64,000 bases of DNA from an uncultured Planctomycetaceae bacterium (lineage in GTDB: Bacteria; Planctomycetota; Planctomycetia; Planctomycetales; Planctomycetaceae). How positions within the stretch are numbered: the first letter of the stretch is position 1; each line of letters begins with the position of its first letter. Where the stretch lies: NCBI GenBank assembly GCA_963976765.1, contig CAXBME010000002.1:62001-126000 (forward strand), given 5' to 3'. Below the pieces are notes generated by a model. It was not told the origin of the DNA. It searched no databases and was given only the letters and a program-made list of their open reading frames with translations. The translations under genes and the position numbers were made by a program. Of this stretch, positions 17,249 to 25,952 are shown piece after piece.

Positions 17249-17708
17249 ATGCCTCGAAATACAATTGCCGCCGCAGGCAGTCTGATCCTGCTCGCCATTG
17301 GTGTGACGTGTCATGCCGCTCCTTCGGCCAGTGAACTGGCTCGGTCGGTATCTGCCCGGTGAAGCGAACGCTGTCAGCGTGGTGCGAGTGGCTGAGATCC
17401 TGAATTCTCCGCGCGCGAAGGTCGAAGGCTGGGCGGAAACCGCAAACGACCGATTTCTCACCGGGGCATCACGAATCCCGCCGTGGATCGACACGCTGGT
17501 GATCGGCTCGCTTGTTCGTCCGGAACTGCATCAGCAGGTCTGGCCAACCGGCGCGCTGTAGCTGCCGAAGAACACCACGATGGAAAGCATCGCGCGCACT
17601 GAAGCATCGCGATTGGACCGACTTGGTGAACTACGCTCGGTGCGGTCAAGTCGGAATTTCATTCTGGTCGAGCTTCGTCCGAGAATGCTGGAAGTGCGGT
17701 CACCAGGC
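17249..17708 (+). pseudogene. Disrupted 5' part of a secreted hypothetical protein gene
   Basis: Signal peptide MPRNTIAAAGSLILLAIGVTCHA; a TCGG duplication (17341-17348) shifts the frame before YLPGEANAV; in-frame TAG at 17559-17561; reading then runs into RND sequence. Confidence 0.7.
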
Positions 17709-18652
17709 GTGCAACTGGAACAGATCTCTCTGGCGGCGATCATCATTGCACTGGGCTTGCTGGTCGATAACGCGGTGCAGGTATGCGATCAGTCACGCAC
17801 CAATCAGATGGAAGGCATGTCACCCGTCGAAGCCAGTATCAAAGGGACGACTCAGTTGCCCACAGCGATGCTGATGGGAACCGCCACAACCGTCGCTGCT
17901 ATTGCGCCGATGCTGATTGGCCTGATCGGCAGCACGCGCGAGTACGTTTACAGCCTGCCCGTCACGCTGTCGATCACGCTGGGAATCAGCTGGGTGCTGG
18001 CGATGACGTTCGGCACGATTCCGGCAGCAGCGTTCATTCGCGTTCCGGCCGACCCGACCAGGCCGTCGGTACCTCTGCCCTGGCTGTTTGCGAAACTGAC
18101 AGCACTGGTCACAAAGAAGAAAAACGCTGACAGTTCCACGGAACAGAAATCTGATCCGCTCGACAGAATCTTCGGAGCGGCCGTTCGCGCGTGTATCGAT
18201 TTCAAGTTCGTTACTATTGGCATCGCTGCTGCATTACTCGTCGTCGCGCTGAAGCTGCCGGTCGCTTCAGAGTTTTTCCCAAAAGACATGCGGGACCAGT
18301 TTCCGATCGAGATCTTCCTGCCGGAGAATTCGACGATTGAGCAGACAGACGCCGTCGCCAGACAGGTTGAAACGATCATCCAGAAGTTGAGCCCGTTGAC
18401 TGACGCTGTCGGACAGCCCGTTGCTGACGAGTCAGGCGAGCCGGTTCAGCAGATTCGTGCATTCCGAACCATGGTGGGTCGCGGTGGCTGCCTCTGGCCA
18501 TGAGCGGTGGTCCGCTGTGGGAAGGCATGTCCTGGTGCATGATCTACTGACTGATCGTCGCTACGCTGCTAACACTGCTCGTCGTCCCGGCGCTCTATGC
18601 GTTGCTTGTCGAAGTTTTCAATGTCAAACCCGTTCAGATTGCATCGGCATGA
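17709..18652 (+). pseudogene. AcrB/RND efflux permease remnant (internal fragment plus extreme C-terminus)
   Basis: ISLAAIIIALGLLVDNA (TM4 motif), TTVAAIAPM, FFPKD; then in another frame LPLAMSGGPLWEGMSWCMIY*LIVATLLTLLVVPALY (last TMs, internal stop). Confidence 0.85.
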
Positions 18653-19995: not shown

Positions 19996-21855
19996 TCAAG
20001 CAACCGGCAACGACACCAGCATGGCTGGTGGTTCAATGGCAGGCTGCTGGTCATCTTCCGGAGCGAGAACGGTATCGACCAGGAAGTAGAGAAGCTGACG
20101 CAGCTTTTCGTTGTCGACGTTGTCCGCCAGTGTTTCCGCACGGGCTCGGGATTTTTCGACCAGAGCGTCGGCCTTTTCGAAGACGCCTGTTTCTTCAAAC
20201 AGACGCTTCAGGCGAGGCCCGCGGCGATCGTCTGTCGACTCCATATTGATGATTTCCTGCAACTCCGCACGCTGTTCAGGAGAAGCCGCATCAATGGCCA
20301 GGGCGAGCATCACCGTAGGCCGCAGCGCCTGGGCATCCTGGCCGGAGAGCAGTTTGTTATTGCTGTCGCCACGCCAGTCTTTCAGGTCGTTGAGAACCTG
20401 GAAGCCGACTCCCAGGTGGCGGCAGAACGATGGGACCAGTTCTTCGTACTTGTCCATCGGCCCGGCCATGCGGAGTCCGGAGTACAACGCGGCCTCGAAG
20501 GCCGGCGATGTTTTCAGAGCATAAATCTGCAGCGCATCGAGCGGGGTCAGTTCCAGCGTCGGTCGCTGCTGCCAGGCCATTTCGGCACCCTGACCGTCAC
20601 ACAGTTTGATATGCGCTTGCGACATGCGGTCCGTGACGTCGCAGGCGACTTCTGCACCGAAGTCTTCGCGACAGGCGTTGAGTAACCGATAACCGAGACC
20701 GATCAAATGGTCGCCAACATTAATGGCAGTTCCGAGATCGTATTCGCGATGCAGGGTTTCTCGACCGTAGCGATACATGTCGTCATCTTCGATGTCGTCG
20801 TGGACGAGCGAGGCTTTGTGGAACGCTTCGATCGACATCGCGACCCGGGCAACGCCGTCAGGGACAGGTAAACGGTCCACGTTTTCGAGGTTCGTTTTCT
20901 GCAACTCTCCATCGGTCATCGCGTCGTAGGCGGCCAGCGTGATAAACGGTCGGAATCGTTTACCACCGTTCTGCAGCCAGTCGTAGGCCAGTTTTTCGGT
21001 GAACGCAATCGGTGATTCAATCTTCGCCGGATCCTTCGTTCGGATTCTTGGAAGGAGCCGATCGAAGTCCCGTTCGAAGATGAAATTCGAGGCTCGCATC
21101 GCCGGCAGGAAGCTGGGAGTCTCAGGCTCGTCCATCGGTTCGTACTGGTCGATGACTTCCCAGATCCATGACTGGTCCAGCGTGGTGTTTTTACAATCGC
21201 CCGAGTGCAGCGGGACGGCGTACGACGGCACGCCCGCGATCAGAATTTTGTCGATCGCTTTTTCCAGCACATTCAGGCAGGCAACTCCGAGGATACCGTC
21301 GATGTAGCCGCTGACGATAATTTTCAGAACGATCGGCGAACCTTCGGCGACGAGCACTTTGTACCCAAGCTTCTCGGCTTTGCCTTTGTAGTCAGCGATC
21401 GAGCAGGCACCGCAGGTTTCACAGTCGAGACCGAAGTCGTCGTAGTCGGCGGGGCAACCTTCCGCGTGTTTCAGGCAGTGAGGCAGCAGCAGCATTCGTC
21501 GGTTAAACGGAATCGCCAGGAACTGACGCTTCCAGAAGAAGTTGCCGATCAGCACGGCCACAAAGCCGGTGTACTTTTCGGGCAGTGACATCTGGTTAAG
21601 CAGTTGTCGAGCCCAGTCTTCCAGTTCGGCCTTGTTGAAGTTGCGGCTGCGGTCGAGCGTTCTGGCGAACTCTTCGCAGGCCGCTTTGACCTTTTCTCGC
21701 AACTCCAGCGTGTCGGGCACTTCTTTGAGATGGCTGGTGCTCTTCCGCTTGCGACGGCGTTTCACCGGAGCTTCATCGTCCACGAACGTAATCTCGTCGG
21801 TCTGTGCTTCTTCCGAGGAGTTGGCGGCACGCGTATCGGCTGGTGCGATGGACAC
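19996..21855 (-). CDS. Polyprenyl (trans-isoprenyl diphosphate) synthase fused to an N-terminal Cys-rich DUF116-like domain
   Basis: N-terminal LLLPHCL...C...[10 protein letters not shown]...GVAC...DC; C-terminal [38 protein letters not shown]. Confidence 0.9.
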
Positions 21856-22006
21856 GTTGTGCTCCTATCGTGAAGTCCGCAGACGAAACCGACTCCATTC
21901 GGCCGCGGGCGGTAATTTGTCTGTTGAGAAAAACTCGCGCGCCATGCGCGAATCATTCCGTACTACGAACGATCTAAAGCCTTAGTTCCTGCGAACATGT
22001 CTGAAT

Positions 22007-22073
22007 CTCACGCGAGGGCAACAAGTTGCAAAGAGCTGAATCAGGATTCTTTACGGCTTGGTGCCTTCGCGTA
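22007..22073. repeat. Imperfect palindromic element, CTCACGCGA...TTCGCGT family, intergenic copy
   Basis: CACGCGAGGGCAACAAG...CTTGGTGCCTTCGCGT arms; left arm resembles the element at 22991. Confidence 0.65.
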
Positions 22074-22186
22074 AAAACGTCCGTCTGACGAAATTCCCGA
22101 CTGGGAATCACGATGCAAACGCCGGGACTTAACCTGGTGATCTGAACTGAACTGGGGAGAGCCGCCGCAGGACTGCGAGGCTCCAA

Positions 22187-24163
22187 TCAGGCAGGACTCT
22201 CTTCCGAAATCTCGACCGCCCGGCGTAACGCCGAGACAGCAAAAATCAGCGGATAGAGCCTTTCAAAATACCATAATCGAGCGAAATAGAAACCGATCGG
22301 TGTCGGCACACAGACAGATCCGTCAACGACCTTATCGATTAACCAGCTAATCCCGTCAAACGCGTTCTTTCGATAAGCCGGGAATTCCAGTAGCACCTCC
22401 GCTGCCAGAGCAGTCTCTTCGACCGATGGAGCAATTCCAGCACCTCCGCCCCAGCCTCCGTTCGAGTTCTGAACACTGGCCAACCATTCGGCAGCACGTT
22501 CAATTTCGGGGAGCCTGCCAGGATTTCCTCGAAAGTAAGCCAGGACTTTTGCTGTGCCGTAGACCGGATTTTCATCATCATTTCCATGCTGATTTCCGAA
22601 CCACAATGGAACCCATGAGCCATCAGGACGTTGCCTGCCCATGAGAAAAGCGAGCCCACGAGCCAACGATGTTTGAATTTTCACATTTAATTGTGAATTT
22701 GACACCCAGCAACTGAATTCGTCGAAACTGTCTGACGGCTCAGAATTACTTAATCTGGCGTTTGCTCCGGAATTCCCGATCGATAATCCTCGATTCCTGG
22801 ATTCTCTGAGGAACTGCCGCGCGTGCCATTCGGAAAGTGCCCTCAGGCAATGTGCAGTGATGTCTGCCGAACTTCGATCAAACGGCAACGTCCCCCAGCC
22901 TCGGCAGAAAGTTGGAAAGCCGCCGTCGCGGTTCTGCAGGCTGAGCAACCACTCAACTCCGTTTTCGAGGGCACCCGGAATTTCCGATTCCTCACGCGAA
23001 TGCGCGAAGCTGCAAAGATCTGACTGAGTTCTTCGTTTCTTCGCGTCTTCGCGTGCCCCCCTTCCCCGTGCCGACCTGCTAAGCGTCTGTAAAGCCAGCA
23101 TTGCTCCGGGTGTGTCGTCGGCGTCGGGGACTCCACCGGGGAGGTCGGTCCAGGCCCAGCCTCCGGGGGCGGCGTTCGTAAAAGGGTGCACCTCTTTGTA
23201 CTGCTGATCGAGCAGCCATTTTGAAAGGCCGGGGCGGAGCTCGTCGGGTACGTGCCCCTGCAGCGCGTTGATCGACAACGTCGTCACCCACGTCGCGAGG
23301 TTCGTGTCGATCGGCCAGCTTCCGTCTGGACGAACGGACTCGCATAGAAAACCGACAGCCCGCTTCACGACGATGTGATCAGCGAGACCTTTCCCCGCAA
23401 GACTCATCGTGACGAAACTCGTCAGCGGAGCCGCTTCCAGGAAGCCTCCATTGGGCGGCTGGATCCGATCCAGAACCTGCAGACTTTTCCTGATCGCTCG
23501 GTTGCGGATGAAACGGACAATCGGATTCCAACTCGGGCAATGATGATGCTTTACCTGCCCGATCGCGATCAAAGCCGGCAGCGCGTAACTGACAACCGGC
23601 AACCGAATCGTGCTGTAAAACTTCGCCGGCAGACACGCCAGTTCGAACGGCAGCGACGTGACTTCTTTCCAGTCAACCAACCCGGCGAGCGCACAATGAG
23701 TCAGGATCGGAACGGAGAACGTTTTGTCTTTCCCGTACCGAGCGACGACCGCCGGCACTCCGCCCTTCTCGTCGATGTATTGCTTTGCTTTTTCCACATG
23801 ATGTGGAAACTCGCCGACCGTACCCGTTGCGTGAAACACGGCGTGAGCGAGCATCGTCGTTGAGATATTGCTGATGCTCTTAACGGTGTCGCCCCAGCCG
23901 CCGTCGTCATTCTGATGGTCGGCCAGCCAGTTCACCCCGCCTTGAATCAGCACGGCGAAGTCAGCGTCCAATGAGTAGTCGGCAGCACTGCGTCCGGCAT
24001 TGCAGACCTGCTGAAGTGCCATGACCGTTGTTGCGGTCGATAAGGCCGACGTCGAAAGCTCACCTTCCCAATGCGGCAGCTCGCCCGGCTTGTTCCGGCA
24101 TTCGGCCAGAAGCAAATCCTTCGCCGTTTCGAAGGTGGATGTGAGTTTCTGCAAATCGATCAT
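22187..24163 (-). CDS. Squalene-hopene-cyclase-like class II terpene cyclase (prenyltransferase/squalene oxidase repeats)
   Basis: [14 protein letters not shown] motifs ([34 protein letters not shown]); PGGWAW; catalytic [16 protein letters not shown]; start placed at MIDLQK. Confidence 0.88.
22991..23055. repeat. Palindromic element inserted in frame within the cyclase gene
   Basis: CACGCGAATGCGCGAAG...CTTCGCGTCTTCGCGTG hairpin, translated as [22 protein letters not shown]. Confidence 0.7.
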
Positions 24164-24171
24164 TGGATGCC

Positions 24172-24271
24172 GTAGGGTGGGCACTGCCCAACAGAAGAGT
24201 AGGCTGGGTCAAGCCCCAGCTTGAAACCATTGCTGGGACACGTCCCAGCCTGCAATCTCGGCCCACCTTAC
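24172..24271. repeat. Nested GTAG-type REP doublets
   Basis: Outer arms GTAGGGTGGGCACTGCCCA (24172) and GCCCACCTTAC (24261-24271); inner arms GTAGGCTGGGTCAAGCCCCAGC (24199-24220) and GCTGGGACACGTCCCAGCCTGC (24232-24253). Confidence 0.75.
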
Positions 24272-25557
24272 AAAGCTCGAATGATCGCCGCCGCGCTTTG
24301 ACCAATGGCAGTGCGGTTTACGGTGATCGCCGTCAGGTTTTTCAAAGGCTGCGGACCATCGTGCACGACGTTCAGACGGCAGCGAGGATCCGGAATTCGG
24401 TAGTTCAATGTGGCTGGCAGCGTTTCGTTCTGAAGAGCGAGCAGGCTGCCGGCAAGTTCAACCGCGCCGGAACCATCGTCGAAGTGGCCGAAGTAACTCT
24501 TCAGAGCCGTCACCGGAATGCGTCTGGTCGCATCGCCGAGTCCCCAGTAGTAGCCCCGAGCTTCGATCACGTCGTCCCGCTGAGTGCTTTTACCGTGCGC
24601 GTTGATGTGGCCGATCTGGTCGGGTTCGATATTTGCCCGTCGCAGCGCGGCGTGGATCGAACTTGCGATGCCTCGCCCATCGGTACTGTTCGGATGACCG
24701 GACGCGTCGCTGCCAGCTCCAACCCCCAGGACTTCCGCGTAGATTCTGGCTCCACGGGCAACCGCGTGTTCGTACCGCTCAACAATGAATGCCGCAGCTC
24801 CCTCGCCAACAATCGTCCCGTCGCGAGTGACGTCGAACGGTCGGCAGGCGTGCTCCGGGTCGTCGTCGCGCTGCGAGAGGCTTTCGAACAGATTGAACTT
24901 GGTCAGATCGACGGGGTGAATGTTCGAGCTGCAAGCTCCCACAATCATCACGTCGGCAACTCCTCGTTCGATGACCCTTACAGCTTCACCGAGCGCCAGC
25001 AACGCGGAAGCATCCCGACAGGTGATGGTGTTATTCGGCCCCTGGGCATTATGTTCGATGGCGACGTGGCAGGCCGGCATATTGGGGAGTTGCTTGAGCA
25101 ACCACAGCGGGGCAATTCTTCCAAGGCCGTCTTCGCCCCAGCGAGTAAACTCGACAACGTCGTCCATTAAACTTTGACAGGCGGCCTCAATGAGTTCTTC
25201 AGGACGACTCGAAATACGACCGCAGCCAAAGACGACGCCCAGTCGAAGTGGATCAATCTGGTCATGTTCCAGCGAGGCATCTTCCATTGCCATCGCTGCT
25301 GCGGTCACTCCCAGTTGAATGCCGCGTGACATCACCTTGATGAACTTCCGGCAGTAAATGTGATCCTCGGGGGCGAAGTCGCGGATCTCGGCAGCCAGCC
25401 TGGTCGGGTAGCCGGCATTCGGCAGCGATTCCAGAAGTCCGATGCCCGACCTTCCTGACTTCAGGCTGTTCCAGAATGCGGCGTTGCCAATTCCGTTCGG
25501 CGCAACGGTGCCGACTCCGGAAATGACTACTCGATTTTGTTCGGGCACCCAGACCAT
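24268..25557 (-). CDS. FabF-like beta-ketoacyl synthase family protein with atypical active site
   Basis: RVVISGVG, GRSGI, LPNMPACHV, GPNNTITCRDAS, CRPFD, GEGAA, INAHGKST, KSYFGHF; start placed at MVWVPE. Confidence 0.9.
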   Translation of the reverse strand: MVWVPEQNRVVISGVGTVAPNGIGNAAFWNSLKSGRSGIGLLESLPNAGYPTRLAAEIRDFAPEDHIYCRKFIKVMSRGIQLGVTAAAMAMEDASLEHDQIDPLRLGVVFGCGRISSRPEELIEAACQSLMDDVVEFTRWGEDGLGRIAPLWLLKQLPNMPACHVAIEHNAQGPNNTITCRDASALLALGEAVRVIERGVADVMIVGACSSNIHPVDLTKFNLFESLSQRDDDPEHACRPFDVTRDGTIVGEGAAAFIVERYEHAVARGARIYAEVLGVGAGSDASGHPNSTDGRGIASSIHAALRRANIEPDQIGHINAHGKSTQRDDVIEARGYYWGLGDATRRIPVTALKSYFGHFDDGSGAVELAGSLLALQNETLPATLNYRIPDPRCRLNVVHDGPQPLKNLTAITVNRTAIGQSAAAIIRAL

Positions 25558-25952
25558 CTCGCCTTTCAGTCCGCAGGCTCTGAGCTTGAACATCTGGCGA
25601 CGTTCAAGTTTCGCAGACTGCTTGCAGCGTCATTACGAAATGCAGGACTCAGTCGTTCAAAATGTCGACCGGAAATCGGCGTCACATTAGAGGACGACTC
25701 AGTAAATCGCACATTTCACGGCAGTGACTACAAGCCCCAGCAAATGAGATGTAATCAGCAAATCAGGACAGAACCTTGCATTTCGCCAGACACCACCGGA
25801 CCCACTCACGGTCGTTTTGTCGAGCTGATTGCAGAACTGGCTGAGATTACACCCCTGCGTCCCGATGGTGTCAAGAGCCTGACCTTCAAGCTTCGGAACG
25901 GCCCGAGCAGCCGATCGACGCAAAGTTTGCCAAAGTTTGCCGACGCCACCTG

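Follow-up and report, generated by a model that had tools for sequence, protein, structure and literature searches.

An SHC-like cyclase beside a DUF116-synthase fusion

Among relatives of the squalene-hopene cyclases (SHCs), Santana-Molina et al. 2020 (PMC7306690) describe a planctomycetal 'SHC-like' clade with a polyprenyl synthase nearby, for which they infer a substrate other than squalene; according to the supplement of that paper (PMC7306690), the catalytic residues of the clade are conserved and the synthase usually lies in the vicinity. McShea et al. 2025 (PMC12414744) list the function of the clade as not demonstrated, even in Gemmata obscuriglobus, and their trees place it outside SHCs and oxidosqualene cyclases (OSCs), next to the polyprenyl cyclases, with meroterpenoid and epoxy-polyprenyl cyclases in the sister clade. 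Here we analyse a further member of this known system of no assigned function, found in a 64,000-nucleotide (nt) stretch of DNA from an uncultured Planctomycetaceae bacterium (hereafter the window). It consists of two adjacent genes, one for an SHC-like class II terpenoid cyclase, the other for a fusion of a DUF116 domain with a trans-isoprenyl diphosphate synthase (trans-IDS). With slightly better than even confidence, we read the pair as the centre of a conserved group of genes for a cyclic isoprenoid whose synthesis bypasses squalene. The window corresponds to positions 62001-126000 of contig C2 in an 8.57-Mb genome of 95 contigs, with a completeness rating of 100%.

The window's pair has the features by which the clade was described: the same divergent two-domain cyclase, the conserved catalytic residues and the polyprenyl synthase nearby (PMC7306690, PMC12414744). 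The taxa of the clade in these papers, Planctomycetota, Verrucomicrobiota and Acidobacteriota, are also those of the relatives of the window's cyclase. The hypothesis of a substrate dedicated to the cyclase was set out in its main lines by Santana-Molina et al. 2020 (PMC7306690). In contrast, the available text of the two papers makes no mention of DUF116 or of the iron-sulfur, radical SAM and toroid companions described below, and the supplement text of Santana-Molina 2020 (PMC7306690) gives 0 matches for DUF116. Our literature search, which did not extend to preprint supplements, found no functional study of DUF116; for planctomycete SHC-like cyclases it found no reported product. The initial annotation of this DNA, made from the letters alone, had known of no characterised product for the gene pair, in agreement with the text available of McShea et al. 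2025 (PMC12414744). One figure legend, concerning a Bipolaricaulota isolate, places a stand-alone DUF116 gene beside genes for IspH, an SHC, an adenosyl-hopene transferase and a polyprenyl synthetase.

Two other systems come close in part. In the C35 sesquarterpene route of Bacillus (heptaprenyl synthase HepS/HepT, YtpB and the sporulenol synthase SqhC), a relative of SHC cyclises a head-to-tail chain provided by a dedicated long-chain synthase (PMC7306690). SqhC, however, groups with SHC in the published trees, whereas the window's clade does not (PMC12414744); moreover, the window's synthase is fused to DUF116 and its family is accompanied by iron-sulfur and radical SAM genes. Among the genes conserved around the pair, we saw no class I enzyme of the YtpB type. 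Lon15 and AtoE of Actinomycetes, from the reported sister clade, act on all-head-to-tail prenyl chains (PMC12414744), but they open an epoxide made with O2, whereas the window's clade has an invariant, alkene-protonating DxDD motif. Among the conserved neighbours in 20 loci there is no epoxidase.

Both open reading frames (ORFs) of the pair lie on the minus strand, adjacent and co-oriented, where the initial annotation had placed them (Table 1). The cyclase scores 71.6 bits on Pfam SQHop_cyclase_N and 104.1 bits on SQHop_cyclase_C. It shares with SHCs the beta-gamma toroid architecture, QW-type repeats and an aligned DxDD motif, but reaches only 90.4 bits on the NCBIfam hopene_cyclase model (TIGR01507), whose cut-off is 431.1. 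It likewise scores 117.2 bits on the squalene/oxidosqualene subfamily model squalene_cyclas (cut-off 322.7) and 73.2 bits on the oxidosqualene cyclase model (cut-off 851), and its best PDB sequence matches, of about 37 bits, span the QW repeats only. A profile of 31 clade members aligns by hhalign with the genome's own SHC over 548 columns with 26% identity and a probability of 99.7; the alignment sets PDADDT of the cyclase against PDVDDT of the canonical enzyme. A further difference from SHC is the genetic context: the cyclase gene is linked to that of a prenyl synthase, the squalene synthase genes being on other contigs.

The DxDD motif, recognised as intact in the initial annotation, occurs once in the protein, and its residues D354, D356 and D357 are invariant in all 31 aligned clade members. 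The QW repeats are also present as first described, though five rather than four could be counted with the pattern Q-x3-[DNG]-G-[GS]-[WF], three of them ending in W and two in F. Judged on its sequence, the protein is not a canonical SHC; since its scores stay under the SHC cut-offs while DxDD is invariant and aligned with that of SHC, we take it for a real and probably active class II cyclase of a separate lineage. Its closest homologue is 83% identical, and public annotations call its relatives 'squalene--hopene cyclase' or 'sporulenol synthase'. Two low-complexity charged insertions, at residues about 366-400 and 455-500 (window 22690-23090, minus strand), sit at loop positions whose length varies strongly among aligned relatives, and are probably surface loops.

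Conservation of the pair and its companions

The pairing of the cyclase with the fusion is conserved well beyond chance. We searched 401 Planctomycetota genomes with each protein and compared the positions of the matches, with E<=1e-40 as the threshold for presence of the cyclase; the rows counted for the fusion go down to E 1.6e-30, weaker ones being ordinary synthases. The cyclase occurs in 101 genomes and the fusion in 103, with both in 99, so that 99 of the 101 cyclase-positive genomes have the pair. Four genomes have the fusion without the cyclase (G035, G118, G158 and G212) and two the cyclase without the fusion (G076 and G196). The genes share a contig in 75 genomes and lie at most 5 kb apart in 70, in all 70 on the same strand, with the cyclase upstream in 38 and downstream in 32; in 24 draft assemblies they are split over different contigs. 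As related genomes are not independent, these counts are given without a statistical test.

A second sample was drawn from a scan of 185,579 species genomes, which yielded at least 592 cyclase relatives; 80 of their loci were examined. They belong to Planctomycetaceae (Gimesia, Fuerstiella, Schlesneria), Gemmataceae and Verrucomicrobiota, including the cultured Chthoniobacter flavus Ellin428, with one Acidobacteriota record. At most 6 kb separate the fusion from the cyclase in 47 of the 80 loci; among the 41 loci with complete flanks this holds for 31. Of the 43 full-length hits, which span both domains, 40 place the fusion downstream on the same strand, as in the window.

The fusion itself is more conserved than the cyclase, its closest homologue being 94% identical. 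Its two Pfam domains score far above their cut-offs (Table 1) and occur together in all 120 homologues among the matches listed. Each of seven cysteines of DUF116 (C127, C134, C145, C148, C151, C193 and C221) is found in 49 or more of 51 aligned fusions, in keeping with the Cys-rich domain fused to a trans-IDS of the initial annotation. On the synthase side, DDIED, the first Asp-rich motif, is present in at least 49 of these sequences, the GGKRxRP, GQ and KT motifs are retained, and RYG stands in place of the usual RRG in 47. Ahead of the first Asp-rich motif, positions -5 and -4 hold the small residues A348 and S349. Small residues at these positions are typical of synthases making C20 or longer chains; this fits a product of C20 or longer, the exact length of which these residues do not fix. 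The nearest solved folds of the synthase domain are C20-C50 synthases, with template modelling (TM) scores of 0.83-0.86.

The AlphaFold model of the whole fusion has a mean pLDDT of 87.7 and a pTM of 0.87. Modelled alone (pLDDT 94.2), DUF116 shows three N-terminal helices and, after them, a Rossmann-like alpha/beta core that carries a Cys-rich loop. Its matches in the ESM Atlas are DUF116 clusters only, with scores of 0.79-0.83, and a search of 1.84 billion representatives found 909 relatives of the domain at E<=0.001, of which 228 reach E<=1e-30. In the window's genome the DUF116 of the fusion is the single copy. From the cysteines and the neighbouring genes, we infer that the domain may bind iron-sulfur. 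An 889-aa DUF116-synthase-toroid triple fusion in one relative (locus L021) was rejected as an artefact of ORF picking, Pfam giving only its C-terminal Prenyltrans domain; a search for longer fused forms, in itself weak evidence, found none.

In relatives, the pair forms the core of a larger cluster, of about nine genes, that also encodes iron-sulfur and radical SAM proteins. We clustered the ORFs around the pair in 20 loci by all-against-all blastp and annotated the clusters. Our greedy ORF picking overlooked the fusion in 3 of the 20 loci and the cyclase in 3, which makes the neighbour counts in those loci minima. A half-size Prenyltrans toroid of about 310 amino acids (aa), from a family that has no DxDD, comes directly after the fusion in 9 of the 17 loci in which an ORF for the fusion was picked. 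A 4Fe-4S dicluster protein of roughly 350 aa and a GcvH-like protein each occur in 10 of the 20 loci, an IscS/NifS-like cysteine desulfurase in 8, and a radical SAM enzyme of about 430 aa and a CobW/HypB-type GTPase in 7 each; a small protein of no assigned family also recurs. The best matches of the radical SAM enzyme, all sub-threshold, are SPASM-type.

The toroid and the radical SAM enzyme follow the cyclase across the phylum. Matches to the toroid (E<=1e-25) occur in 47 of the 401 genomes and orthologues of the radical SAM enzyme (E<=1e-80, with a clear gap to the paralogues at 5e-62) in 73; all of these genomes are cyclase-positive, and each family is found in 0 of the 300 cyclase-negative ones. 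Because these thresholds are strict, a missing match in a cyclase-positive genome carries no information.

The window's genome departs from this arrangement, and from the clade as described, in that its companions are scattered. The four that we searched for are all intact but lie on other contigs: the toroid on C13, the radical SAM enzyme on C1, and the GcvH-like and 4Fe-4S proteins on C15. Several matches in the genome searches carry a flag for an internal TGA, which is no sign of selenocysteine: in the two cases read, the stop codon is that at the end of the gene. That the two-gene core persists although the rest of the cluster is dispersed is what the window itself adds, and for this reason the cyclase and the fusion appear to be the functionally tightest pair of the set. 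Directly upstream of the GcvH-like and 4Fe-4S genes on C15 we noticed a gene of the PNP_UDP_1 phosphorylase family (L032:36-2532, plus strand). It could encode a 5'-deoxyadenosine/methylthioadenosine nucleosidase serving the radical SAM enzyme, or an HpnG-like enzyme.

A proposed pathway and its rivals

The mechanism predicted for the pair is plausible. A dedicated all-trans polyprenyl diphosphate of more than C15 would come from the synthase domain of the fusion, which would feed it to the cyclase; the cyclase would protonate a terminal double bond through its DxDD acid and fold the chain into rings. DUF116, with its seven cysteines, may bind iron-sulfur and, together with the ferredoxin-like and radical SAM proteins, modify the chain before or after cyclisation; such a modification could be a reductive handling of the diphosphate end, or C-C or C-S chemistry. 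The product would be a membrane lipid distinct from the hopanoids. The initial annotation had read the locus as an SHC-like cyclase for which the fusion makes a dedicated polyprenyl substrate, with a non-hopanoid polycyclic lipid as product. Of this reading, computation supports a part: the cyclase is far from canonical SHC yet retains the aligned DxDD, its pairing with the fusion is conserved, and the genome has a separate SHC and farnesyl diphosphate (FPP) synthase. The supply of the cyclase by the fusion and a polycyclic product other than a hopanoid are predictions; a plain two-enzyme pathway is unlikely, because the pair is the core of the larger cluster with iron-sulfur and radical SAM proteins.

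Cyclic isoprenoids are both membrane regulators and durable molecular fossils, and few large branches of the terpenoid cyclase family lack a known product, as the SHC-like clade does. The set is now defined as the cyclase, the DUF116-synthase fusion, the toroid, the radical SAM enzyme, the ferredoxin-like protein and the GcvH-like protein, and is usable as expression constructs. Cultured carriers are Chthoniobacter flavus Ellin428 and Gemmata obscuriglobus, the latter named in McShea 2025 (PMC12414744).

A bolder form of the proposal, which we consider speculative and very improbable, is that the pair and its scattered iron-sulfur and radical SAM helpers carry out an oxygen- and squalene-independent cyclisation of head-to-tail polyprenyls to tricyclic or polycyclic polyprenoids, and that orphan biomarkers of sediments, the extended tricyclic terpanes among them, originate from this route. 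For these terpanes the geochemical literature has proposed tricyclohexaprenol as precursor. If true, widespread aquatic and soil bacteria would be the long-sought biological source of these biomarkers.

Several observations weigh against the preferred reading, that of a gene set making a cyclic isoprenoid without squalene. Adjacency is not universal: in 5 of the 75 genomes with both genes on one contig they are 6.5 kb to 547 kb apart, and among the 41 fully flanked loci there are 10 where the fusion is absent from the 6 kb around the cyclase. In the window, the gap between the two genes holds a terminator-like hairpin (Table 1), but a promoter and terminator scan of the region gave site counts not above those of shuffles (for such hairpins, 10 found versus 7.2 +/- 2.3). 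The second Asp-rich motif of the window's fusion begins with N (NDLKD), as in 32 of the 51 aligned fusions, D being found in 18. No NCBIfam synthase equivalog cut-off is reached by the fusion: its best score is 124.2 bits against 450, with 94.6 bits on FPPsyn (cut-off 275) and 64.1 bits on the octaprenyl model (cut-off 412).

DUF116 adds further points of this kind. With its model, Foldseek gave no match at E<=0.001, and an exhaustive alignment against 48,161 chains gave a best Z of 5.7, to a generic Rossmann fold; altogether, the fold searches returned generic Rossmann or flavodoxin-like matches only. Stand-alone DUF116 genes occur elsewhere in the phylum in unrelated contexts: two in tandem beside a Rce1-like CAAX-protease-family gene and priA, and one separated by 2 nt from the gene downstream of it, rsmB, for a 16S rRNA methyltransferase. 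These contexts suggest that DUF116 has a role outside terpenoid synthesis, and make the domain a general module rather than a terpenoid marker.

The isoprenoid genes elsewhere in the genome count on both sides. As the initial annotation had stated, no squalene synthase lies in the window: a genome-wide search with PF00494 finds two SQS_PSY genes, on contigs C10 and C5 only and none on C2 (HpnE-type oxidases were not searched for). Contig C3 holds a separate, canonical SHC, with 680.1 bits on hopene_cyclase against a cut-off of 431.1. With these genes, squalene is likely available in the cell, and a DxDD cyclase could also accept it, which is a point against a squalene-free route. Contig C9 carries an FPP synthase (347.8 bits, cut-off 275) beside dxs, which it overlaps by one base on the same strand in an ispA-dxs arrangement (L121:180-4937); given this separate enzyme, FPP for squalene needs no fusion. 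At 0.7 kb from the FPP synthase and dxs, on the same strand, we also observed a 380-aa toroid ORF with a weak squalene_cyclas match of 46.8 bits.

One rival explanation starts from this availability of squalene: the cyclase would be a second, divergent cyclase of squalene or of a squalene-derived substrate, giving a triterpenoid other than the usual hopanoids, and the synthase would be loosely related to it, for example as a boost to the precursor supply. The two SQS_PSY genes, the retained DxDD and two-domain architecture, the public annotations of the relatives and the known promiscuity of SHCs (McShea 2025, PMC12414744) all agree with it. We nevertheless hold it unlikely, in view of the near-perfect co-occurrence of cyclase and fusion, the confinement of the toroid and the radical SAM enzyme to cyclase-positive genomes, the ordinary FPP synthase and ordinary SHC that the genome already has, and the published trees that put the clade outside SHC/OSC, beside the polyprenyl cyclases (PMC12414744).

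About equally unlikely, in our view, is a meroterpenoid or cyclised prenyl phosphate as the product, in place of a free polycyclic hydrocarbon or alcohol. Here the chain would sit on a polar or aromatic head built or joined by the radical SAM and iron-sulfur proteins, and the cyclase would act on the prenylated molecule in the manner of Lon15, MstE or copalyl diphosphate synthases. The meroterpenoid and epoxy-polyprenyl cyclases of the sister clade (McShea 2025, PMC12414744) lend support to this option, as do the companions (radical SAM, 4Fe-4S, GcvH-like carrier, cysteine desulfurase and DxDD-less toroid), which exceed the needs of a synthase plus a cyclase, and the resemblance of the half-size toroid to a prenyl-binding protein (Pfam Prenyltrans). 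However, the conserved neighbours in the 20 loci include no aromatic prenyltransferase of the UbiA or ABBA type, and DxDD, which implies protonation of an alkene, does not discriminate between the substrates.

The last rival concerns the fusion, whose chief task could be housekeeping: as a medium- or long-chain prenyl diphosphate synthase it might provide, for instance, the side chains of respiratory quinones, and it would then lie beside the cyclase on account of shared isoprenoid metabolism and not of a dedicated pathway. Counted by tblastn, by a profile search of 20,049 six-frame ORFs and by tblastn with the synthases of eight relatives, the trans-IDS genes of the assembly are two only, the FPP synthase on C9 and the fusion, and this, again, counts against a dedicated synthase. 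By contrast, 7 of the 8 fusion-positive relatives examined carry a further, non-FPP synthase; of these seven, four are solanesyl-, octaprenyl- or heptaprenyl-like, all below cut-off, and the extra long-chain-type synthases have no orthologue in the assembly. Either the gene for a long-chain synthase fell into a gap of the assembly, or the fusion is the source of long chains as well; in this genome it might also, or only, serve housekeeping needs for long chains, to which its small residues A348 and S349 would be suited. As the chief role of the fusion such a function is very unlikely, since about 300 of the 401 genomes of the phylum lack the fusion while presumably still needing quinones, the fusion tracks the cyclase and not respiration, the same seven relatives have the extra synthase beside the fusion, a gene may simply be missing from 95 contigs, and a crude, non-exhaustive screen of the genome found two UbiA-family genes and no MenA.

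Layout of the locus

The coordinates of the pair, of its domains and motifs, and of the stand-alone DUF116 regions mentioned above are collected in Table 1. The likely start of the cyclase is the ATG listed there, because relatives start at the Met that is residue 8 of the GTG-based ORF. The fusion starts at a GTG with AGGAG 7 nt upstream.

Table 1. Features of the cyclase-fusion locus, in window positions, and stand-alone DUF116 regions of other genomes.
Feature	Position	Strand	Remarks
SHC-like class II terpenoid cyclase	22187-24184	-	665 aa from GTG 24184; Pfam SQHop_cyclase_N and SQHop_cyclase_C
Probable start of the cyclase	ATG 24163	-	658 aa; inferred from relatives
DxDD general-acid motif, D354-A-D-D357 in PDADDT	23114-23125	-	sole DxDD in the cyclase
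DUF116::trans-isoprenyl diphosphate synthase fusion	19996-21855	-	619 aa; both Pfam domains
DUF116 domain, residues 84-235	21151-21606	-	PF01976, 126.8 bits (cut-off 25)
Cys-rich loop of DUF116, residues 127-151	21403-21477	-	conserved cysteines
Polyprenyl synthase domain (polyprenyl_synt), residues 289-543	20227-20991	-	PF00348, 144.9 bits (cut-off 27)
First Asp-rich motif of the fusion, DDIED	20785-20799	-	alignment of 51 fusions
Second Asp-rich motif of the fusion, NDLKD	20377-20391	-	alignment of 51 fusions
Spacer between cyclase and fusion, 331 nt	21856-22186	-	holds terminator-like hairpin at 21938-21950
Stand-alone DUF116 regions	L037:7918-9446 and L038:7937-8935	-	other Planctomycetota

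The sole gene upstream of the pair on the same strand encodes a FabF-like beta-ketoacyl synthase (24268-25593, minus strand), located 83 nt from the cyclase; it scores 327.9 bits, under the fabF cut-off of 493.75. As a member of the system it was rejected, being found in 0 of the 20 fetched loci and in 1 of the 80 loci of the second sample. In a Pfam scan, the other large ORFs of the window are ordinary planctomycete genes, with no further terpenoid gene among them. Finally, a 307-aa ORF on the plus strand (17580-18503) matches only the middle of resistance-nodulation-division (RND) permeases, at positions 381-597 of the 1021 of the ACR_tran profile, and represents a fragment of a gene or else an RND-like protein of unusually small size.

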